Notes under the pieces: generated by a model
The model's database searches: none
What the model saw: the letters and a program-made list of their open reading frames with translations, nothing else
What the model was told of the DNA's origin: nothing
Source of the DNA: Vermamoeba vermiformis
Taxonomy: Eukaryota
Assembly: GCA_045837725.1 (NCBI GenBank)
Contig: JBEWZL010000219.1
Span: forward strand, 1-64,000
DNA: 64,000 nucleotides
Reading direction: 5' to 3'
Translations under genes and position numbers: made by a program
Shown here: piece by piece, positions 12,381-63,745 of the stretch
How the letters are laid out: each line of letters begins with the position of its first letter
Position numbering within the stretch: position 1 is the stretch's first letter

Positions 12381-12883
12381 GATAAATCCGGATTTGACTT
12401 GATTTGTTCGGGTGTATAATTTTAAAAATTACTAAAAGATGCCCAACGAGCCTATTAGACTTGTCTCGGAGACCAAAAATAGGGATAAATTATTGAAATA
12501 TTATTGAAAAATCAATGAAAAAACATCTAACTTGTCTGGGTCTTGCGAGGAGATTGATTTGGCTGCGCGATCGTTGCAAAATTCGAAGGAAATGATGATG
12601 TATGGACTAACCCTCAATTAGGCTGTTGCCTCGTAATTGGAATTCCAGTTTGCATCTGATCGAACGTTGGGTTGGGTTTGGTCTTAAAATATGCTCTTTC
12701 CTAAAAACGTAGATGGAATTCTAAAATCGATAACCTTGACCAATCGTTAATCTGCTACAAGGTTCGGGTAATTAGAAATTATCGCAATTATTTAGGGAGG
12801 CTTTATTTCTGGCAACAAAAAAAAACGGTCAAATTCGCAAACCATTTTATCTCACAACTACCAACAACACTACCACACCTAAC

Positions 12884-13631
12884 ATGTATCCTAATCAACC
12901 TGGTTACCCTGGCCAACCTGGCAACCCTTACGCCATGCAGATGCCGGGTCAAACCTATCCTGGTCAAGTTCCGGGCCAACCTTACCCCGGCCAACCTGGT
13001 ATGCCTGGAGCTTACCCTCAACCCGGTCAACCTGGTTACGTTCAACAGACCACCGTCACTACCACTACTAGCGGTCAAACTGGCTATCCTCCTCAACCCG
13101 GATACCCTCCTCAACCTGGATACCCTCAACCTGGCATGCCCGGAGCTATGCCTGGCATGCCTGGAATGCCTGGTGCTATGCCTGGTGCTATGGTTAGCAT
13201 TCCTGGCCAATGGTCTCGTCCTTCCTTCCAATACAACATGCCCTACTCTCGCCAAGAGATCTTCATCATCCCTTACGGCATTGATCCCGTTCAAGCTCAA
13301 CGCATGACTCGTGCCTCTCAAATCTTCCGTACCTTCGATCGCAACTACTCTGGTACCTTGTCCTTCAAGGAGTGGAAGAAGGCCATGAAGGCTTTGGGCT
13401 ACCACATGAACAAGTGGGACAAGGAACGCTTGTTCTTCATGATCGATAGCAACCGATCAGGCCAGATTGACGAGCGAGAGTTCTGTAAGTGAAATAGCAA
13501 ATTTTTAAGATTTTTTGCATTATTTTAGGATTTTTTTAGCTCACAAAAATTAGATTTGAAAAAAAAACTTTCAATCCGGAATTCTAACCAACGATTATTT
13601 AGGCGAATACTGGGCCCTCTATGGCTACTAA
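12884..13631 (+). CDS. EF-hand calcium-binding protein with Gly/Pro/Tyr/Gln-rich N-terminus (peflin/annexin-A7-type low-complexity tail)
   Basis: PGQPGY repeats. Two EF loops, DRNYSGTLSFKE and DSNRSGQIDERE. One intron 13485-13602; last exon (C)EYWALYGY*. Confidence 0.85.
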
Positions 13632-17288: not shown

Positions 17289-19370
17289 ATGGACGGATTT
17301 GTTAAATTGCAAGTTGAAGATTACGGGGATAACGAGCAAAAAATAACTGTAAGTTCAAATATTTACGGGACATATTATTTGTACAACAACGGCGAGCTCA
17401 ATATTTGTAAATTAATTGATTTAATGCTTGATATTTCGTGGCGTTGATCTGAGGCCACGGAACTTTCATTATTTTAATTAACCAACAAATTTAAATAGGC
17501 CACGACGCATTCATTAATTGCTGCTTGCTTGCAAAATGACATACCATTTGAAATTGGCACTCTAAACACGTTGGTATTGAATACAATGAACGAGCACCAA
17601 AATTTAGACTTATTAAAAGACGCTCTTATAAGTACAAGCTCCATTAAGCGAGTTAATGCGCAGGATAATTGCCTTGCGTTTCCAAAAATTGCAACCGCTC
17701 TGGTCTCTAATAAAGCAGTAACGTGTTTAGATCTGACACGCAACAAGGAGTACTGCGCGCTGGACACCCTAGCTGATATTTTACAAACAAATACGACATT
17801 AACGGACCTGATATTAAAAGAATGCGAGATTGGATCCAAGGGATCTTTGAAGATCAGCGAAGCCCTGAAGACAAACTCGGCATTGAAGAGGCTAGATTTA
17901 TCGTCGAACAAGATCGAGACGGAGGGAATGCAAGGACTAGCCGAAGCATTGAAGATCAACAAGTCACTGAGCCATTTAATGATTGGTGGAAATGGCGACA
18001 ATATTCTGACGAATCTGTTTGACGCGGTCAAAAGTCATGACACTTTGACACGTTTGGACTTGTCCACGACGTACCTCAGCAACCAAGAGTGCCAATCATT
18101 GTTCAACGCGCTAGCCTCCAACAAGAAGATTCAAGTGTTAGAACTGAATCGATGTATTATAAGCCACGAGGGCTGGACCATGATCGCCAAGTTGCTGGAG
18201 ATGAATGACACTTTGACAGATCTGGATCTGACAACTTCAAATCTGAAGGCTGTGGACTGCGAGAAGATATCGCAAGCCCTAGCCATAAACAGCACACTCA
18301 AGATTCTTAAAATTGGTTCGCGCAACATGCCAATCTCGCAAGAAAGCATGAACATTGACCGCGCAGTTGCAAAGGCGTTGCAGAGTAACAAATCACTGAC
18401 TGACCTGCGCATACACAAGCTGATTATGAACAACTCTGTCGTGGATATTTGCGAGGGTCTCAAGGTCAGCAAGACCCTCACTCATTTGTATATTAGAGAG
18501 ATTATGGACATGAAGGACTTTGGCTTTGAAGCGTTCACTGAAGCGTTGAAAGTCAATCCGACATTGAAGCACTTAGACATTGGAAGTTACAGCATTGATA
18601 CTAGAGCATATGCAGCATTCAGAGAGTTCTTGTACAACGACTTTGTGTCACTGGCGTTTCGCAACTGTGTTCGGCGGCACGAAGAAGTGCAAATAATTTA
18701 CGAAAGATTGAACGTGCATTCAACGCTGAGGAGCTTTTCACTGAAAGGATGCGACTCACTTGGCCTCGAATCATTTCTGCTATTATCATCCATATTGACG
18801 TCGAACACCGTGCTCCGGTCATTAGACGTCAGCGAGATCAAACTCGAAAAATCTTTTGCAATCTGTCGAGCACTACGACATAACTCGACATTGACGAAGT
18901 TGGCAATTGACAGCAGCGCACGAACATTGGACAGAAATCAACATTTGCGATATTATCAAGAGCTAGCAGCAATTCTCAGAAAAAATCGGTCTTTGCGAAT
19001 TCTCGACTTGACAGCTGTCCATATTGACACCACAATTGCGGCGGAGTTATTTGAGTGCCTAAAATTCAACGATTTTATTGTCGACATTAGATCCAACGGA
19101 GATATGGCTCGAATTCATAGTCCAGAATTAGCTGAGCGATTAGAAGAGAACCGACAAGATTTTATGAAGCTGAAAGAGACCGTTAAAAACACAATTACCA
19201 ATTTATATATTTTGGCGCGCAACGAAAAAACGAGAAATTTGTTGCCCGTCGAGATCTGGACCGCGTATGTTTGTAAACACATTCGCTTCCAAGACGTTCA
19301 TGTAGATTTTGTACCAATAGGTCAACGTATTTGGGCTGATAGTTTTTCTATTCGCAAATACGTTGATTAA
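17289..19370 (+). CDS. RNI-like (NLRC3-type) leucine-rich repeat protein with C-terminal F-box-like motif
   Basis: Exon 1 17289-17348, intron 17349-17498, long exon 2. About 28-aa repeats of ALKxNxxLxxLDLS. Ends NLYILARN..LLPVEIWTAYVCKHI. Confidence 0.85.
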
Positions 19371-19921: not shown

Positions 19922-20579
19922 ATGATCAACAACGAGCCCAACAACACCAGCGCCATCAGCAACAGTGCTCCTAATGGTACTTCGAACCAACAGACTACAC
20001 AGATCGGCACCGGTCAAAACATCGTAGTGAATGTTGGTCAGAATCAGACCATTCGCGGCCCTATTGTCGATCCTACTCGCTTATGGAGCACTGATCTATG
20101 CGACTGCTGCATGGATTGCGGTACTTGTAAGTATAGATCAAATAACGGCTCTTTCGAATCCGGGATCTAACTTCGTGTTAGGCGCTATGTCATGGTTCTG
20201 CCCTTGCGTTCAAGTAGGCATGAACGCCACTAAAGTCAGTAACTGCAGTTCGCCACATTTAGAAGGTTGCTGTTGCGGTTTCTGGTACTGCATGTTGTGG
20301 TTAATGTGCTTGGGTTACTTCTTCGGATGTGGTTTGCGTATGCGCATCAGAGAGCGAAACAGAATCTACGGGTATGCTTTATTTAATATCAAAATTGCAA
20401 TTTTAACGGTTATAATCAGAAATCCCTGCGGTGATTGCTGCACTCACTTTTGGTGCCCGTTCTGCGCTGTAGCACAAGAAGGTCGAGAAGTTAAATATAG
20501 ACTCAAAGCCCTAAGAAACGCTCAAGAAATGACTACTGGCATCACCGGTTGTTTCGCAAATGCCCAACGTCTAATTTGA
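19922..20579 (+). CDS. PLAC8/cornifelin family cysteine-rich protein
   Basis: WSTDLCDCCMDCGTC, WFCPCVQ, RMRIRERNRIYG, DCCTHFWCPFCAVAQEGRE; two introns. Confidence 0.92.
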
Positions 20580-27270: not shown

Positions 27271-29359
27271 ATGCAGGTACGATCCGAAAAGAGAATCTAA
27301 TTCAATACCACAAACTTTCTTAATTAACATTATAACAAAAATTGATAATAATATTGTCGCATAAATAATACTGATAATTATACCATTTAACGATTTTTAA
27401 TTGAAATTAAAAAAAATAATTAACGGCTAAATTTTCAGCTCGCCAAAACCTTCCCAGACATCATCAATTATCTTCAAAAAAAGCAACCCTTTCAAATAGT
27501 CGTACTACCAAAATTAGCCATTCAAAGTCTGACCCGATTTTCGGATCTCAGCCTGTTGATAGATGCGCTCGAAAATACGACCTGCTGTCACAGAATTAGA
27601 TGCAACGCACGACGTAGTAGCATTTCCTCGTATAGTGAAGAGTCTATTCAAAAATACTTCCATTACATTAGTAGATCTATCCAAAAACCAAACGTGCAAC
27701 GCAATCTCCGAATTATCTGAAGCATTGAAAGTCAATAAGACCATCAAAGAGCTGATCTTACGAGAATGTAATATTGATAGTGAAGGTCTACGTAGTCTCA
27801 GCAACGCACTCAAAGTCAATTCAACGTTAAAACGACTGGATCTGTACGGCAATATTTTGGCGGAAGAAGCAATCAGCGAGTTAGGCACAGCATTGCAAAT
27901 TAACACCTCAATTAGATCATTGTCAGTCACATTTATCGCAGTAGTACGTGAATCAGCCGGAAAAGGAGGCGACAAAGCCTATTTTACCGTACCAGGTCCA
28001 CAAAGCCTTATTAGCGACCTAAAACTCAACACGAGTTTGACACATCTGGATCTGTCGAACTCAAATCTGACCGATACCCAGTTATACGATCTCATGGCAC
28101 ATAACAAGCACATTGAAGAGTTAGATTTGAGTGGCTGTGTTGCGACTATTGACAATTGGAGCAGAATTTTGGACTTTATTGACACGAATGACACTTTGAC
28201 ATGTCTCAACTTGACATCTGCAAATTTGACGGCGGAACATTACCAAGTCATTCAAAATGGACTACAAAGCAATAAGACATTGAAGTCGTTGGTTACAGGC
28301 ATGAAGACCGTTCAACAAGGTGCCGAGAATGGATCGTTCATAACTAGCTCCTTGGCAAAGGCCCTGCAAACGAACCAATCATTGACTGAGCTAAAAATAG
28401 ATCAATTACTTGGCAGCGAGGAAGTGGCTAGTTTCATTAACGGATTACATTCCAATTCAACGCTGTTAAAGCTGTCATTGGCTGTCAGCACGATTACAAG
28501 ACCAGTTTTGGTTTCGTTCAGAGAATGGTTTGCAAATGGCGGAAACTTAGAAGAATTGGAACTTGAATCGAGTCATATTGAATCCACTGTCCATGCTAAT
28601 TTCGAGTTTAAGCAGTTTGTGGCACTTCCGTTCAAATCGCTAGGACTGCTCCGATGCGTGTCATTCGCACAACAAGAGTTTTTGGTGCAAGGACTGAAAG
28701 AGAACAAAAAATTGACTGGTCTATCAATACCGAGTAGTATTGATTTTTTTGGTAGTAGTCGCCAGGCTGTACTGCTCGCCGAATTTTTAAATTACTCAAC
28801 GACAATAAGAAAGATAGATATTAGCGGAATAGGCGTGCAAGAGACAGCGAAGATAATCGAATTATTAACGCCAGCATGTCCGTTGAAGCATATAATTATA
28901 GACGGTCGTAACAAGGTAGCGCCCATCCAACATTTTATGGAGCTGGATGAAGAAGAGCTTTTCAGCAGTTTGAAACACTACTTGAAGTTCAATAAGAAGA
29001 TTAGAGTCATTGAATTAAAGGAAATTCAAGCGAGTTCAAATTTTGCCAAGAAATTCTTGGAATGTTTAGGCGATAATTCGACGTTGGTGGATCTGATCAC
29101 TCCAGGCGACAGAGCGCAGCTATTATGCCCCGAATTACGAGAAAAATTACAAGACAATCTGTTACAAACATTTCAACGAGCAAGAGTCAATATTTACGTA
29201 CTCGCACGGAACAACGACGTCAGATCTGCTATTCCGTTCGAATTATGGCTTCAAATATTCGAATTTATTTCGCCAGAGTTTGTAAGAGTGGCAACTGCAA
29301 TATGGAACGACTGCTTTACTATCGAGAGACGCTACAGATGGCAAAAGAAAAAATATTAA
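27271..29359 (+). CDS. RNI-like LRR protein with C-terminal F-box-like motif, paralog of 17289-19370
   Basis: Same repeat pattern and shared N-terminal segment (LIDALENT / AFPRIVKSL vs LKDALIST / AFPKIATAL). Ends NIYVLARN..AIPFELWLQIFEFI. Exon from 27439; probable indel near 27580; start uncertain. Confidence 0.82.
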
Positions 29360-53476: not shown

Positions 53477-53952
53477 TTATTTTTGACTTAGTTGGTCTAA
53501 ACAATCGACAATTAAGAAAAATAGAGCAAATCCTAAGACAAGACCTCCGAATCCGAGCAATACTGCGCCTGAAATTATAAAATCCGCTAAATAATACTAT
53601 AATTAGTACAATTTAAGAAATAATAACAAAGGATCAAATTTCTACTTTTAAATTATTGTCCGTTTAGTACATCCGACAAAGACTTTAAATCCCTGTTTTT
53701 ATGAATCAAGTGTTTTTTTTAATAGCAACTTACTTTGATTAGGGGAATATTTATATAAGCTGAATGCTAATGATAACAATATGATCCCAGGGATAATGCA
53801 CGCGAGAGGCTGGGAATACGAGGTGACCACGTGTTATTCACTTCGAACGATCCCCCCGCGGAAGATTCGTAGCACGCTGCTAGCAAACCTCTGCCCCACG
53901 TAACTAAGCAGAGTTTTATCTTTGATAGTTCCCGAGCATTTCCTCGACCCAT
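53477..53952 (-). CDS. Small two-TM membrane protein, tandem paralog B
   Basis: MGRGNARE...LACIIPGIILLSLAF..YSPNQ|TDFIISGAVLLGFGGLVLGFALFFLIV..*. The first splice junction is not cleanly resolved. Confidence 0.7.
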
Positions 53953-54106: not shown

Positions 54107-54496
54107 TTAGTTTTTACAAAGGATAACTAATATTACAATGGCCAAAATTAACACCAGCCCTCCAAATCCGAGCAGCACGGCGCCTGAGATTATGAAGTCC
54201 GCTAAAATTATTAAATTAATACTGTAACATTCGTTACGATGCCTATAACCTCATTTAATGTCACACCATCATAAATTTCATTTTTGATTTTTTCAGTTAA
54301 CTCCCGATCCGATAAATCAAAAATAAACCGACGAGGCAAACTTACGTTGATTAGGATAAAAATTATATTTTCCATATGCTACGGCGAGCAATATGATGCC
54401 AGTAATTATGAACGCGCTAGCAACACCAAGGAGCACTCGACTGCACAGTTGCATGCAAGGCTTCACTGGCGATGGTCTTTTGCTTCCTCGGCCCAT
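54107..54496 (-). CDS. Small two-TM membrane protein, tandem paralog A
   Basis: MGRGSKRP...VLLGVASAFIITGIILLAVAY..YPNQ|PDFIISGAVLLGFGGLVLILAIVILVILCKN*; one intron. Confidence 0.75.
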
Positions 54497-54873: not shown

Positions 54874-56391
54874 CTACGCCAACTTGTGCGCGTTAGTGCT
54901 CAGTAATTCATGGAATAGTCTTGCATCAGGCAATATCTGCTTGATCTTATCCAGCGCTTCTAACGAGACATTTTTGCACGCCCATAGATCTAAGTGTCGA
55001 ATGTTCGGACACTTATTCACTATTTCTAGGACCGCCGCGCCCGTGCACTCCTCGACTCTACGAGGTATATATTAGTCATCATGAAAATAATACTGAACTG
55101 TGGGGCAGTTAAACAGGTGGCGAGATCTGGTTCCGAATTTTGACAAGCGAAATAAAAACAACTTGTTATAATCTGTACTTACTCCCTTAAGCTTAAATAT
55201 TGCAAATTAGGACAAAATTTTGCAATATGAGCGAGCCCCTTGTCTGTTATGTACTTGCATTCAGATAAATCCAATTTGCGCAGGGTCGGGATCCGCTTCA
55301 CTATGAACAACAAGTTGGTATCTGTAGCCCTATAAAATAGCATTAATACACTATGACCGGGACCTACTATATAAGGTAATTACCCCGTGAAGCATCGTGC
55401 CAATGACAGGGCAGTCAAGTGCGTGCAAGTGTTCGCCACAAATTTGAATGTGCTGTCTTCGAGCAACAAACCACTCAAATCGAGAGTGAGGGCGTGAGGA
55501 CTAATCAACATTTTGAGTGTTTTGTTCGATATTTTCTTCGCGCCCGTTATCTCCTAGTGGTTACACAGCAGATCAGTAACCTGGATCTCGATACAGAATA
55601 GGTATTCCCTATTCGATTATTATGCATACCTTTAATTTTTGTAGTATACTATTGATTAAATATCCGTCTTCTAATTCGACGACTTCTGGAAATTCTTTTA
55701 TGTTGGAGGCGACGTAACTCAAGGTGAGGTTCAACAAGGAAGGGACATTTGGATTGTCCTTATCCGTGGCATCTGTTCGATCACGTGCATTCGATATATC
55801 AATACCTGAGTCCTATATTAAGCCAAAGAACTAGATCAGCCCACAAAAACTTGATCCGATCGCAAACGAGAAAATACTTACGGTCACGAAAGAATGACCA
55901 TACGTCGCGCGTACAAATGTTTGTCCATTTGAAGATTTTACTTCTAATTGAAAGGATCAGTAAATCAATTCATTAGCTAAAATAAGTTGATGGATCTGGC
56001 TTACCAAATCTCGGCTCATTTTTGACCGAAGAAACACTCCAATCAATACACTCTAATAAATCTTGCTCATTGTGACCGCGAAGATGCGCTAATAAGTCAG
56101 CTGTAAATATTTGAAATTGAAGTCAGTCTTGGTTCCATTGAGAAATCGGTAAGAAAATTCGCCATAATTCAAAATGACATCCTATATTGTATTATACGTA
56201 CCTATATGCAAGTATCCGCCCTTATACATTTTTTTGCCAATATCTGGATATTTTACAGGCGCGTGTCGTAAAATAAACGCGAGTCGCTTAGACATGACTT
56301 TCTTCCATTCATCTCTATTAGTATATCCACGCTCCATGGTATTATATTTGATATTAATATTGAAAAATGTGTGTTTCCCTTGCTTGGGCAA
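54874..56391 (-). CDS. Tpt1/KptA N-terminal (RNA-binding) domain + BC-box + AMN1/FBXL-type LRR fusion protein, 7 exons
   Basis: MSKRLAFILRHA..GGYLHIADLL..KNEPRFE..FVRATYGHS, then VPSLLNLTLSYVASNI, then LRRs (LRKLDLSECKYITDKGLAHIAKFCPNLQYLSL). All junctions are GT-AG and in frame. Start at 56391 or 56337. Confidence 0.82.
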
Positions 56392-56454: not shown

Positions 56455-58169
56455 TTAAAATACAGCTGATTTAAAGTACTTATACAATAGTGGCATATTA
56501 TCAAGTTTATATTGCGCTTCACTAGATAATTTGCATTTAAATTCGAGTTCTTGAAGCTGCGTCAATTTCGAGATAAATGCGCCAGTTCAACGGCTTGGAA
56601 TTTCTTATTTTTAATCTCGTTAGATTAGTCAAGCTAGTTAATAAGCACAACCGCTCTGACTCTTCATCATGAATGGTCAAGTGGACCAGATCTGTCATTT
56701 GTTGCAAAGTCGTCCAAAACAAATCACTCGTATTCACCGCATGGTTCGTTAATGCTGTCAAATGCAATGTGCCAAGATGAGTAATGGCGATATTGCCATA
56801 TCGACCTGAGTCTATTCGACCACCGAATCGTTGCAGCGATGTCAAGTGTGTCAGATCCGCTACGCCAGCACCTTCATTTCCTCGAATATACTCCAAATCA
56901 CCTTTAAACTTGGCCATGAGCATGCCACGTGTCTTGAACACTTTTAATTGCGTCATTTTGCATGCAGTATACTCCAAAGCGTTGATGCCTTTGGTCTTGC
57001 TCGAAATGTAAGTTAAATGTGGCAGTGACAATAGAGGCTCCCAATTATTTGTAACTTCATTAATGCCAATACTGAGCTTTCTAAGATTGATGAATCTGTC
57101 CAGCACATTCGGACCCTCTCCGGGAAAAAATGTCAATTCTTCCAAGGCCTCTGCGTTCATGCTGCTCAATGCGCCGGGTGATATCGACCATTTTAGTCCT
57201 TCAAACACTCGTAAATTCTGCAAATGTGCAAAAAATCCATCATCACCACGTGTCATATCACGTGACTTGAGCACTAGTAGTTTGGTCATGAACATGAGTC
57301 CATCGTATCGTTCGACATTAGGTGGCACGTCTATTCGCAAATAGGTCAAATTGGTCAGCGCTAACACCGAGTCCAACAGCATATAATGTCCTTCAATCGA
57401 CAGCCAGTCAAGATTAGTCAACGTGCCTATTTTGACGTGTGTTGGCAGGTACGCTACTCTTAGTGCCTTCAATTTGGTCATTGGTGTGACGTCAACGAGT
57501 GGATGGTCCAAGTACTCGAGTGAAAGGTGCGTCAGTTGTGAGGCCAGGCCATAAACGATGCTACTCTTCTCGTGCACGGTGTTTTTGCCCTCCAAGCTTA
57601 AACTTTCCAAATTTGTACATTTCTCAAGCAATTCTCTATCGTCTACAAAAGTACTACTGCCCAATCGAACACGTTTCAGTCGTGGATTCGCTGCTGCAAC
57701 TGCCGCGACAACAGGTGACTTGATCTCGCGCAGATTAGTCAAAGTTGTAAATCTATGCATAGTATCTCGATCAATAAATAGCTCGCCAAAATCCAAAGAG
57801 GTAAGTTGAGTTAAATTCGATATCAGGCCTAAGTGCTCCGAATCCAAGCGGATGCTCTTTCGTAATGCTAGACCAAACGGCCATTGTTTTTGTTGCAATA
57901 TTGATACAGCTTCTTTTAATCTGGCATTATTGGCCAATTGAATGGTGTATGAATAGCATTTCAAAGATTTGAACCAATGCCTGTTGAGTACGCGTGTCTG
58001 TTTTTTGAACTTTCCATCTGCGTACGCTTCAATAATTAATATTAATTCCGTAGGCAATGAATCCTATAAAAAATAAGTATTATAATAATATTAGTATTTA
58101 TGACAATAAATTGCAAATTATTTATGATTAATTTTTCATGCCATCTGAGCCTTGCGTGCAACTTACCAT
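56455..58169 (-). CDS. F-box/LRR protein
   Basis: ATG|intron|DSLPTELILIIEAY..RVLNRHW. LTNLTxLxL repeats. Probable +1 indel near 56588, after which the LRR continues ISKLTQLQELEF to a stop at 56455. Confidence 0.8.
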
Positions 58170-60746: not shown

Positions 60747-63745
60747 ATGCCGAAAGGAAAAGGAAAAGGAAAGAAGGGCAAGAAGCGAGGAATGAAACTC
60801 GAAGATCTGCTCGATCTTGCGCAAGAGAAAGTGCAAGAAAAATTGGATAACAGAGAAAAATTCACCGATGTCTCCTACTTGAATTATCGTAAGTTTATTA
60901 TCATAAGATACAAATTATTTCATTTTTGGCATTTTTTGGATGCGATCCGATCTGAGATTCGTGGTTAACGTTTGTATAGAGGAGGCTCCTGAAGCTGTAG
61001 AAAAGAGAGAAGAAGATGCATTGGAAAAGGCAGCAATGGTTGAAGAAGAGGAGCAGCAGACCGCATACCAAAAGTTATTACAGACACTCGGAGCAGATCC
61101 AAACAAAAAGGTACCTAATATCATTCTTTTAGGCACATAAATTTACAAAAAAAATAGAGAAAACGCGATGAGGACTCAGACAGCACTTCAAAGAAGAGTA
61201 AGTGACACTTGATCCTAGCTAGGATCAACGCACGTAGACTAATTGTAACTTATAGAGCGAAAGAAGCGAAAAAAAGTTAAGCAACAACAGCAACAAGACG
61301 ATGAAGATGGCGACGGTGAAGAGCCTAGTAGTGTAGCTGACAATGGTACGTGGTATACTTGACATGTAGTGCGTGTCAAAGTGTTAACTTGCTGTCTTGT
61401 GTGCAGAGGAATCTGAAACAGGCGATGCAGTGATGAAGGCTTGGAACGAGAAGAGAGACAAGTTGATGAAGAAGGAGCAGGCACATCGCGATGCCAAGGA
61501 CAGAGAAATGGAAGGGTACGTGACACGTGACAACGATTGTTTTATGCAATCACGTCTCTTTCGCTGAGAAGCTATTGGTCTAATAATTCTTGTTTATGCA
61601 TATAGTGATGAAGACAGTGCCGAAGATTATGAGGAGAACTCGTAAGTAACATGCAGTCTACGTATGCCGAGATCAGATTTTGATTGTTTTGTTTGTTGTC
61701 AGTGAGGACCAGCTGGCCATTGATGAAGTTGAAGAGTTTGCAGCCAACGATAACTTCTTGCTGCGATTTGAAAAGAACATGACCAAGGCTGAGATCGAAG
61801 CTGGAGTGGGCAAAAAAGGTACGACAAGAATGGATAATATATTTGACGGCAGCGTGCTTATTCCCATATTTAGAGTTCAAAGAGCTTACGGGCTTGAAGT
61901 CAGCAGAGAGTTTTGGCAAAATTTTGAGCAACGGACTCGCGGTCTTGCCAAAGTTAAAGCACTCCCTTGAAGAGTACAAGGTACGTGCCACTTATAGAGC
62001 AGTATTAAGACGACGAGTACTAATATTGTGTATGATAGATTAAGCCCAGATTGATCACTCAATGGAAGAATTTCTTCAACAAGTGGTACGAGAACGCTGA
62101 TGAGCCGATTGATGAAATTGACGGTGTACCATCATATTCTGACGTCAAAATGACTCCTATGCAACAGAGGTACGTAGCTACGACGTTTATGAGTGCAATC
62201 TTCTAACAGAGCATTGTTAGATTGTTTTCGTTGATGAACGAGTACGTCGATATTTGCTACAGTGGCCGAACAGTGCAAAACGCCAAACAAATTCGCGGTG
62301 CTTATGTCTTGCACACAGTCAACCATTTGTTCAAGACGCGCGATAGAATCTTGAAAAATAACGGAAGATTGCACAGCAACAAAGACTTGGAGTTCAGAGA
62401 CCAAGGCTTCACTCGTCCTAAAGTTTTGATCCTTCTGCCAATCAGAAGCGCAGCCTTAGATGTTGTTGAAGATATTTTAAGCTTAATGCCGAAAAATCAG
62501 CGCGACAGAGTGCAAAACAAGAAGAAATTCTACGAAGAGTTTTTGGATGCGACGTACACACCTGTGAGACCTAAATTGGGCGAGTGGTTGCAGATCTTCC
62601 GAGGCAACACTGACGACAGCTTCAGAATCGGTCTTGCCGTGACAAAGAAGTCCATCAATCTCTATAGCGTAAGTATAATAGCCTGTACGAGTACCTCAAA
62701 TCTAACACGTGTCCAGGAATTTTATGGATCCGACATCATTGTTGCGTCACCTTTAGGCCTCCGTCTTGCCATTGAACAGCATGACGATGATCACGACTAC
62801 TTGTCTTCCATCGAGCTTACAATTGTTGATCATGCTGACATGCTTCTCATGCAAAACTGGGACCACCTCAAGTTCATCTTTGACAGACTCAACAAGACTC
62901 CCAAGAAGCCCGATCACACCGACTTTTCACGCGTTAAACAATGGTACCTAGATGAGCACGCACAGTATTACCGCCAGACATTGGTCTTCAGCGGCGCGTT
63001 AAATATTGACATCAACTCGCTGTTCAACCGCAGCTGCCACAACACGCTGGGCAAGCTCAAGATCAAGCCCAATTACAGCGTTGGTGCCGTGAGTCAAGTT
63101 ATCCCTAAGATCAGACAAATCTTCCATCGCATTGAATGCACGTCTGCCAAACAACTCGATGACGCACGATTCAATTACTTTGTAACGGAAGTTTATCCGC
63201 ACATCAAGACTACACTGCAGCACGGTGTGTTGATCTACATCCCTTCGTACTTCGACTACGTGCGCATCAGAAACTTCTTCAGACAAAAGCAGAAGACTGA
63301 AGAGATTCTGTTCACTCAAACTTGCGAGTAAGTAGCGAATGCGGATTTGGATCCGATCTTCTTACTAATAACTTCGTAGGTACACTTCTGAGGCTAACAT
63401 TTCTCGAGCTCGTTCAAACTTCTACCACGGCAAGCGAGATATCCTGCTTTTCACTGAACGCTTCCATTACTATAACAGGCAAGTAAAACCAAAAGAATGA
63501 AAATCCGGATCTAGGCCTAATTCTTTTTCTTTAGATTTTTCATTCGTGGAATTAAGCACATTATCTTCTATTCGTTACCTGTATTCCCGCACTTCTATCC
63601 AGAAATGGTCAACATGGTTCCAGATGACGGCACCGTTCTCTCAGTGTTCAGCCACTTTGATGCCCTCCAATTAGAACCTGTTGTTGGCACTAAGCGCTGC
63701 GAGCGATTATTATCGTCAGAAAAAGCAACACATTTGTTCTGTTAA
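60747..63745 (+). CDS. UTP25: U3 snoRNA-associated protein 25 (DIEXF/Def)
   Basis: RDQGFTRPKVLILLP, FRGNTDDSFRIG, FYGSDIIVASPLGLR, DYLSSIE, MQNWDH, IPSYFDYVRIRN, TERFHYYNRFFIRG. Confidence 0.96.

Follow-up and report, generated by a model that had tools for sequence, protein, structure and literature searches.

Within the first 64,000 nucleotides of contig JBEWZL010000219.1 of Vermamoeba vermiformis (the whole stretch analysed, called the window below), a seven-exon gene on the minus strand (coding sequence 56337–54874) encodes a 325-aa protein that is a domain homologue of the tRNA 2'-phosphotransferase Tpt1/KptA and not a Tpt1 enzyme. Its N-terminal part is the RNA lobe of Tpt1/KptA, whereas the nicotinamide adenine dinucleotide (NAD+) lobe is absent and a helical cap with a leucine-rich repeat (LRR) module is found instead. 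We interpret the protein as a reader-adaptor without catalytic activity that would recognize RNA marked by phosphate or ADP-ribose, or a related nucleotide, a reading to which we give a probability of about 50%.

The 978-nt coding sequence contained one terminal stop, and all six introns (101, 61, 69, 76, 54, and 125 nt) ran from GT to AG. An initial annotation of this stretch had proposed seven in-frame exons joining a Tpt1-like lobe to Cys-containing LRRs. These exons were present as an open frame of 325 codons, and the peptides quoted in support were all found in the order given: SKRLAFILRH in exon 1, PRFE across exons 2 and 3, VRATYGHS in exon 3, VPSLLNLTLSYVASNI in exon 4 and the LRRs in exons 5–7. 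The end of the proposed span at 54874 was correct; its other limit, 56391, was the stop-to-stop boundary of the open reading frame (ORF), and the first ATG lay at 56337. The window was eukaryotic in character, with a G+C content of 40.8%.

The Tpt1-like N-terminus

The Tpt1-like part was encoded by the first three exons, all on the minus strand like the rest of the gene. Exon 1 (56202..56337; start codon 56337–56335; aa 1–45 plus 1 nt) held the predicted helix 1 of the RNA lobe with SKRLAFILRH (Arg24, His25). Exon 2 (56005..56100; aa 46–77) held helices 2 and 3 and ended in the PRF motif (Arg76, Phe77), and exon 3 (55882..55943; aa 78–98) supplied the beta-hairpin wing and VRATYGHSF, with which the Tpt1-like part ended.

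The spliced window protein, computed by script, matched a family hidden Markov model (HMM) built without its own clade over aa 13–310 (E 3.5e-91) and an N-lobe HMM built in the same way over aa 13–99 (E 1.1e-27). By BLASTP, its residues 16–95 aligned with residues 13–86 of Escherichia coli KptA (E 8.5e-5). A search with exon 4 retrieved P0001, a 325-aa 'hypothetical protein' identical to the spliced model at 297 of 325 positions without gaps, and this protein served as proxy in Pfam, PDB and AlphaFold comparisons. P0001 matched the Pfam family PTS_2-RNA (PF01885) with an E-value of 6.3e-9 and 36.6 bits (cut-off 26), its residues 14–98 covering positions 5–85 of the 177 in the profile. The same family was detected in the relatives P0085 (E 5.6e-11) and P0104 (E 4.1e-7), each time along only the first half of the profile, and scored 22–24 bits, slightly below the cut-off, in P0036, L002, and L003. 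Exon 1 alone gave an E-value of 0.065, single-exon Pfam scans being too weak to decide domain identity.

The family profile also matched solved Tpt1/KptA chains (E 3.6e-8 to 1.3e-4), with profile positions ~7–102 lying on the N-terminal halves of the chains. In the hhalign comparison with E. coli KptA (probability 88%, E 2.8e-6), residues 13–97 were paired with residues 10–88 of 184 in a register in which SKxLxFxLRH, RF, and (I/V)RAxxGHS coincided; Arg76-Phe77 fell on KKRF, and the exon 3 motif on IRAVQGHS of KptA. The AlphaFold (AF2) model of P0001 had a mean predicted local distance difference test (pLDDT) of 83.6, and its residues 10–90 were folded as helix-helix-strand-helix-helix-hairpin. 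In a VIA search of 48,161 chains, the model was superposed on mouse TRPT1 (7yw2_A) with a Z score of 11.9 and a root-mean-square deviation (rmsd) of 2.0 Å over 86 residues (model 8–101). This match stood at rank 48, behind LRR proteins, and Foldseek with the same model returned solely LRR proteins among the matches listed.

Tpt1 consists of a winged-helix RNA lobe and a second module, the NAD+ lobe; Arg18, His19, and Arg68 of the Clostridium thermocellum enzyme (CthTpt1) contact RNA (junction) phosphates and ADP-ribose-1''-phosphate (PMC6333775, in part; sources so marked are cited here for a portion of their text). The window protein carried R24, H25, R76, F77, R89, Y92, H94, and S95. In an alignment of nine family sequences, 10 of the 20 invariant columns were located in residues 41–95; Arg76 and Phe77 were invariant in 9/9, R89, A90, Y92, H94, and S95 were likewise invariant, and LRH was kept in all eight sequences that have the N-terminus. 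Judged from this alignment, the RNA lobe is the most constrained part of the protein, and residues ~13–99 can be assigned as a Tpt1/KptA RNA lobe with the Arg-His...Arg clamp residues kept.

Nothing past residue ~98 resembled the NAD+ lobe: the Pfam match ended at position 85 of 177, the hhalign match ended at KptA residue 88 of 184, and residues 119–325 were cap and LRRs. The initial annotation had described both an N-terminal Tpt1 RNA lobe and the loss of the C-terminal catalytic lobe. The first was supported by the PF01885 score above cut-off, the Z score of 11.9 to TRPT1, the hhalign match and Arg24-His25 with Arg76, and the second by profile and hhalign matches that stop in mid-protein, where the LRR module follows. 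Compared with Tpt1/KptA proteins (PF01885; E. coli KptA, mouse TRPT1, C. thermocellum Tpt1), the window protein thus shares the winged-helix RNA lobe, its motifs and the Arg-His...Arg clamp, but has LRRs in place of the NAD+ (ADP-ribosyltransferase) lobe and the fourth catalytic Arg. Since this lobe and this Arg are absent, the protein can neither be a 2'-phosphotransferase nor transfer ADP-ribose. As a separate observation, the ESM Atlas contained clusters of 105–125-aa proteins from bacteria and plants with PF01885, which could be either fragments or Tpt1 RNA lobes that exist by themselves.

Transcripts, selection and NADAR-bearing relatives

The lobe and the LRRs belong to one gene, as the initial annotation had assumed, and not to two adjacent ones. 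P0001 and two members of the same cluster, P0003 and P0004 (299/325 and 298/325 identical to the model), were each encoded by an uninterrupted 325-aa ORF on ~1.2-kb contigs (1196–1216 nt), which were regarded as transcript-like because they are too short for the introns. Continuity from lobe to LRRs was also seen in L002 (an intronless 360-aa ORF), L003 (a 354-aa ORF) and L004, a genomic copy that is 63% identical and has its exons arranged in the same way.

Splicing was observed in contigs of X9, a run guessed to be RNA, from a close relative. X9 contigs omitted exactly 55058–55182, which is intron 6, joining 55183 to 55057, and exactly the 76-nt intron 4, joining 55629/55630 to 55552/55553. 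An X9 contig covered 55383–55552, and the 17-nt loose end at 55383 was identical to 55312–55328, the start of exon 6; intron 5 had therefore been removed as well. The run index listed no RNA run for the stretch itself. Three raw RNA runs under the species label of the best-matching DNA run had only 3–11 reads each at the locus, and these were only 95–99% alike, so that they probably came from a diverged copy. RNA reads of X22 stopped at 56202 and ran on into exon-2-like sequence (23 of 30 positions in common with the start of exon 2, counted by eye); they represent a diverged gene copy spliced at the same donor. Among the public runs aligned to the locus, no read covered the exon 3–4 junction of the window's own allele. 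The spliced model therefore agreed with the RNA contigs of the relative at introns 4, 5, and 6, and lacked a read at the exon 3–4 junction. All 11 nucleotide differences listed in the run alignments were synonymous and in the third codon position, which shows that the gene is under purifying selection.

The same architecture was found well beyond the window. The exhaustive homologue search was evaluated for the best 150 of 17173 matches; these were filled by LRR proteins, and the census of the family is therefore a lower bound. For four of these 150 (P0036, P0085, P0104, and P0081, which is N-truncated), a single alignment with P0001 spanned both the lobe and the LRRs. Word-index searches gave LRR relatives only, besides P0001 and P0085, and a metagenome scan with a pattern around RAxYGHS added L002–L005. 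In total, at least 10 lineages, the window included, shared the order RNA lobe, cap, LRRs. Only two relatives were named, Balamuthia mandrillaris (P0085) and Clydonella (P0027, a cap-LRR relative), both of them Amoebozoa of the Discosea.

Three lineages carried a C-terminal NADAR ADP-ribosylhydrolase domain, namely P0085 with its cluster (E 4.5e-28), P0104/P0170 (E 2.7e-24) and L005 (E 6.7e-30), and at least seven lineages had forms without it. P0085 was annotated as 'NADAR domain-containing protein'. In L005 the lobe (122–835) and the LRR-NADAR part (832–1767) were in two frames of one 1769-nt contig, and an RGG-rich N-terminal stretch preceded the Tpt1 lobe. These amoebozoan and environmental proteins had the same lobe, cap and LRRs as the window protein, with ~30% identity in one stretch (~14–310), and differed from it by their NADAR. 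NADAR (PF08719) was absent from P0001 by Pfam and from the 64-kb window by tblastn with the NADAR-bearing relatives (E ≤ 0.01), and tblastn with relatives found no second family copy in the window. The component domains are known, and their combination appears to be new; a full-text literature search (main texts, with supplements outside its scope) found no description of a fusion of the Tpt1 RNA lobe to LRRs or NADAR.

KptA and NADAR have been linked in RNA-repair contexts (PMC9503650, in part), and NADARs act on RNA by cleaving ADP-ribose off guanosine bases (PMC11833690, in part). With NADAR present in three related lineages, the family is connected to ADP-ribose/RNA chemistry rather than to proteolysis in particular. 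The same distribution, together with the end of the window gene right after the LRRs, could be taken to mean that the gene once had the form Tpt1N-LRR-NADAR, lost its enzyme domain and is now decaying without a function of its own. This explanation was considered extremely improbable: its differences are 11/11 synonymous, the ORF has stayed intact at 63–92% identity across the window, P0001, P0003, P0004, and L004 with the same intron layout, spliced RNA is present, and forms without NADAR occur in at least seven lineages.

The cap and the LRR module

Residues ~119–325 comprise a three-helix cap and Cys-type LRRs. Exon 4 (55630..55812; aa 99–159) encoded a low-confidence linker and the three-helix cap with PSLLNLTLSYV, in which Leu124 is invariant and which resembles a BC-box or an atypical F-box element. 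Exon 5 (55384..55553; aa 160–216) contributed the final cap helix and the beginning of the LRRs, exon 6 (55183..55329; aa 217–265; LRR_6 by Pfam with E 2.4e-6 on this exon alone) Cys-type LRR units (LDLSECKYITDKGL...), and exon 7 (54874..55057; aa 266–325 plus the stop TAG at 54876–54874) the last units and a C-terminal helix, after which there was no NADAR. In the P0001 model, the linker was residues 111–118, the cap helices spanned 124–134, 140–144, and 148–162, and a fourth short helix led to six beta-alpha LRR units. Pfam recognized LRR_6 (E 1.4e-6, 28.3 bits against a cut-off of 23.4) and LRR_4 (E 1.9e-6, 28.3 against 27), as tandem units with the pattern LxLxxCxxITD.

The module was of a type that substrate receptors of cullin-RING ligases use, in agreement with the type of LRR module that the initial annotation had placed after the RNA lobe. 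Against the PDB, the family profile matched FBXL2 (4.8e-60), FBXL17 (1e-37), Rad7 (2e-20), TIR1 (9.4e-20), SKP2 (~2e-17), and KDM2B. In the VIA search, FBXL2 gave a Z score of 20.2 (model 118–325 on chain 14–251), FBXL17 18.0 and SKP2 15.6; the second-best structural match was Rad7 (Z 18.3, rmsd 2.1 Å, 170 residues, model 139–320). The same LRR families were returned by Foldseek. The closest language-model (ESM) clusters to residues 116–325 were called 'AMN1 homolog' (0.94), which was treated as a lead only. With AMN1 and the FBXL-type receptors (FBXL2, FBXL17, SKP2, KDM2A/B) the module shares a short helical cap, about six LRR units and LxLxxCxxITD, and these proteins were its best matches in sequence and fold. 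It differs from them in having no F-box recognizable by Pfam or hhalign, and a partner RNA lobe was found in none of the listed matches.

The cap also occurred inside longer LRR proteins, since a cap HMM matched P0027, P0074, P0041, P0120, P0056, P0025, and P0077 with E-values of 2.6e-7 to 3.2e-4. An OTU domain was observed upstream of the cap-LRR part in the relative P0045 (residues 665–741, E 4.6e-7), and a weak otubain-like match in P0025 (residues 53–121, E 0.051). Such upstream deubiquitinase-like domains are a contextual hint that the cap-LRR module works in ubiquitin signaling.

Two proposals were compared for a cullin ligase linked through the cap. The first, already made in the initial annotation as an Elongin-BC adaptor layout, is that the cap is a BC-box/VHL-box binding Elongin B/C and a Cul2/Cul5-type cullin, the protein being a receptor directed by or towards phosphorylated RNA ends. 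The BC-box consensus is (S,T,P)LxxxC/S/Axxx-phi and that of the Cul2 box is phi-PxxphixxxPhi, and ZYG11 proteins are metazoan (PMC4878042, in part). The window cap reads S123-L124-L-N-L-T128-L-S-Y-V132 and follows the family pattern S-L-x-x-x-[T/A/G/C]-x-x-x-[V/I]. Like ZYG11B, LRR-1, and PRAME, the protein thus has an SLxxx(C)xxx-phi-like helix directly before the LRRs, but the motif is partial. At the C/S/A position, the residue is Thr in the window and P0081, Ala in P0001 and Gly in L004; P0085 and P0104, and also P0027, have the canonical Cys, but P0036, L002, and L003 have Leu.

Further evidence on the BC-box was divided. The cap profile did align with ZYG11B around its BC-box, in which L18 and C22 contact Elongin C (bioRxiv 10.1101/2024.06.24.600508), but the E-value of 0.93 was not significant, and the cap-only profile gave nothing significant against the PDB (best, LRRP 9e5c_1l, E 0.048). 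The stretch FPEVVELED fits the Cul2 box in part, but its Pro is missing in the other clades, and the 'DGxL...' helix lacks the Pro that P0027 has (alignments read by eye). No conserved Cul2 or Cul5 box was seen by eye downstream of the BC-like motif in the family alignments. Rad7, an Elongin C/SOCS-box LRR protein (Elc1-Cul3) of yeast, was the second-best structural match, with the superposed LRRs described above, yet its superposition begins at model residue 139, past the putative BC helix. The OTU or otubain-like domains of P0045 and P0025 also fit a ubiquitin-linked module; on the other side, animal specificity was inferred for Cul2/Cul5-Elongin ligases (PMC2785787), whereas the named relatives here are amoebozoan, and an LRR solenoid of any kind requires a hydrophobic cap at its N-terminus. 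Of the proposed Elongin-BC layout, the LRRs after an SLxxx-like helix were retained; the consensus was satisfied only in part, and the nearest named module was AMN1. A BC-box was rated unlikely.

The second proposal is that the cap is a divergent AMN1-type F-box, and the protein an SCF (Skp1-Cul1) receptor with an RNA-lobe reader. Its layout would be comparable to that of KDM2A/B, in which other domains (reader or enzyme) are likewise followed by a box and then by LRRs. The P0001 model was superposed on ranges of F-box proteins that start before their LRRs, with model 123–321 on COI1 23–234 and model 127–325 on TIR1 25–258, besides the FBXL2 range given above. The F-box helices of FBXL2, COI1, and TIR1 presumably lie in the pre-LRR start of these ranges.

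AMN1 homologues were the nearest ESM clusters. In yeast, Amn1 carries an atypical F-box, is co-precipitated with Skp1 and Cdc53, and brings about the turnover of Ace2 (PMC6181423, in part). Cryptic F-boxes are reported to be frequent in proteins that interact with Skp1 in Dictyostelium, an amoebozoan (PMC9485057, in part), and SCF-type ligases are ancient (PMC2785787). However, Pfam found no F-box family in P0001 (E ≤ 1) or in the cap-bearing P0074, P0025, and P0120 (E ≤ 0.1), and in a single hhalign comparison the cap profile failed to align with the canonical F-box that P0161 carries (probability 0.2%). The conserved Trp-containing motif of the third helix was also not seen by eye. No literature naming AMN1 together with Elongin C was found, and AMN1 is absent from the main text of the human E3-ome paper. 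The F-box was given somewhat better odds than the BC-box, though well below even. For either kind of partner, Skp1 or Elongin C, a cullin-ligase link is plausible at somewhat less than even odds, and we lean towards there being no cullin link.

Proposed function, gene neighborhood and significance

The conserved core of phosphate-clamp RNA lobe, cap and LRRs, together with the optional ADP-ribosylhydrolase in cis, led to the reader-adaptor reading. Because the Arg-His...Arg clamp is kept, the RNA lobe would most likely bind RNA or a nucleotide with a 2'/3'-phosphate, or an ADP-ribosyl-phosphate. A flexible linker would tether it to the AMN1/FBXL-type capped LRR solenoid, which would act as a protein-binding platform. 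The unit of reader, cap and LRRs is joined in cis to a NADAR ADP-ribosylhydrolase in sister lineages, and hence the shared job of the family is probably the delivery of an effector to RNA that bears phosphate or ADP-ribose marks. The window form, having no NADAR, would recruit its effector in trans through the cap and LRRs; this effector could plausibly be a cullin ligase based on Skp1 or Elongin C, the two types taken together falling a little short of an even chance. The gene structure, its splicing, purifying selection, the domain identities with the kept clamp residues, the loss of the NAD+ lobe and the NADAR-bearing relatives were observed; we infer ligand binding by the isolated lobe, the identity of the ligand and all partners of the LRRs.

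Several points weigh against the reader-adaptor reading. The Pfam, PDB, and AlphaFold evidence comes from the proxy P0001, which is 91% identical, and not from the window protein. In the window protein, the Gln of the Tpt1 GHS motif is replaced by Tyr and the Lys of KxRF by Glu, this Lys having been reported as non-essential in Tpt1 (PMC6333775, in part). The model had a predicted template modelling score (pTM) of 0.58 and a linker with pLDDT < 50, so that it does not fix the relative placement of the domains. No evidence was found for an isolated Tpt1 RNA lobe binding RNA without the NAD+ lobe. In addition, the NADARs tested so far were inactive on phosphate-linked ADP-ribosyl RNA (PMC11833690, in part), and the combination of a phosphate clamp with NADAR is therefore not straightforward.

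The lobe could instead be a small-molecule sensor, in which binding of a 2'/3'-phospho-nucleotide such as adenosine 3',5'-bisphosphate (pAp), coenzyme A (CoA), NADP(H) or ADP-ribose-1''-phosphate/Appr>p switches the binding of LRR partners. The pAp moiety of CoA occupied the RNA lobe in the CthTpt1 crystal, and ADP-ribose-1''-phosphate is likewise contacted by the clamp residues (PMC6333775, in part); Tpt1 acts on NADP(H) as well (PMC10622864, in part), and the NADAR fusions point to ADP-ribose metabolites (PMC9503650, in part). However, the RGG-rich stretch before the lobe of L005 is a motif typical of RNA binders, and the winged-helix lobe of Tpt1 evolved for RNA. A sensor was judged quite improbable.

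A bolder form of the reader-adaptor reading would be that the Tpt1 RNA lobe, released from its catalytic context, serves on its own to recognize 2'-phosphate or ADP-ribosyl-phosphate marks on RNA, and that in amoebae it is wired either in cis to NADAR or, as in the window gene, to a cullin-RING ligase by way of an AMN1-type cap. Targeted proteolysis or a response resembling innate immunity would then be set off by marked or damaged RNA, for instance RNA attacked by ADP-ribosylating or RNA-cleaving toxins of bacteria. This is speculative and, taken as a whole, unlikely.

The window was rich in LRR genes. An intronless 508-aa LRR ORF (56537–58063, minus strand) ended 200 nt upstream of the start codon of the gene; its N-terminus was F-box-like by eye (LPTELIL...W), and Pfam gave only LRR families (LRR_14 E 2.3e-8, below cut-off). 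Two further intronless LRR ORFs of 623 and 598 aa (17499–19370 and 27563–29359, both plus strand) were paralogues with 30% identity over 603 aa and LRR_6 matches. Between 53250 and 54520 on the minus strand there were several short ORFs with a hydrophobic segment, two of which shared a near-identical stretch (53477–53596, 54107–54250) and two of which begin with MGRG. These may be tandem small membrane-protein genes; at the DNA level no repeat was found among them at E < 1e-5. Ordinary eukaryotic genes, all on the plus strand, encoded UTP25 (62207–63331, E 4.4e-98), a PLAC8 protein (20031–20579, E 5.3e-15) and an EF-hand protein (12776–13492, E 4.1e-12).

The role of Tpt1/KptA outside tRNA splicing and the physiological meaning of RNA 2'-phosphates are unclear, as is that of phosphate-linked RNA ADP-ribosylation (PMC11833690, in part). 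The present family keeps the phosphate-recognizing lobe only and couples it to LRRs, and in sister lineages also to an ADP-ribosylhydrolase; it would be a natural 'reader' of such marks. It would also give an experimental handle, with a small conserved domain, three obvious point mutants and defined candidate ligands. If the cap binds Skp1 or Elongin C, a chemical mark on RNA would be linked to ubiquitin signaling. More generally, the family would exemplify how half of an enzyme can be reused as a recognition module.

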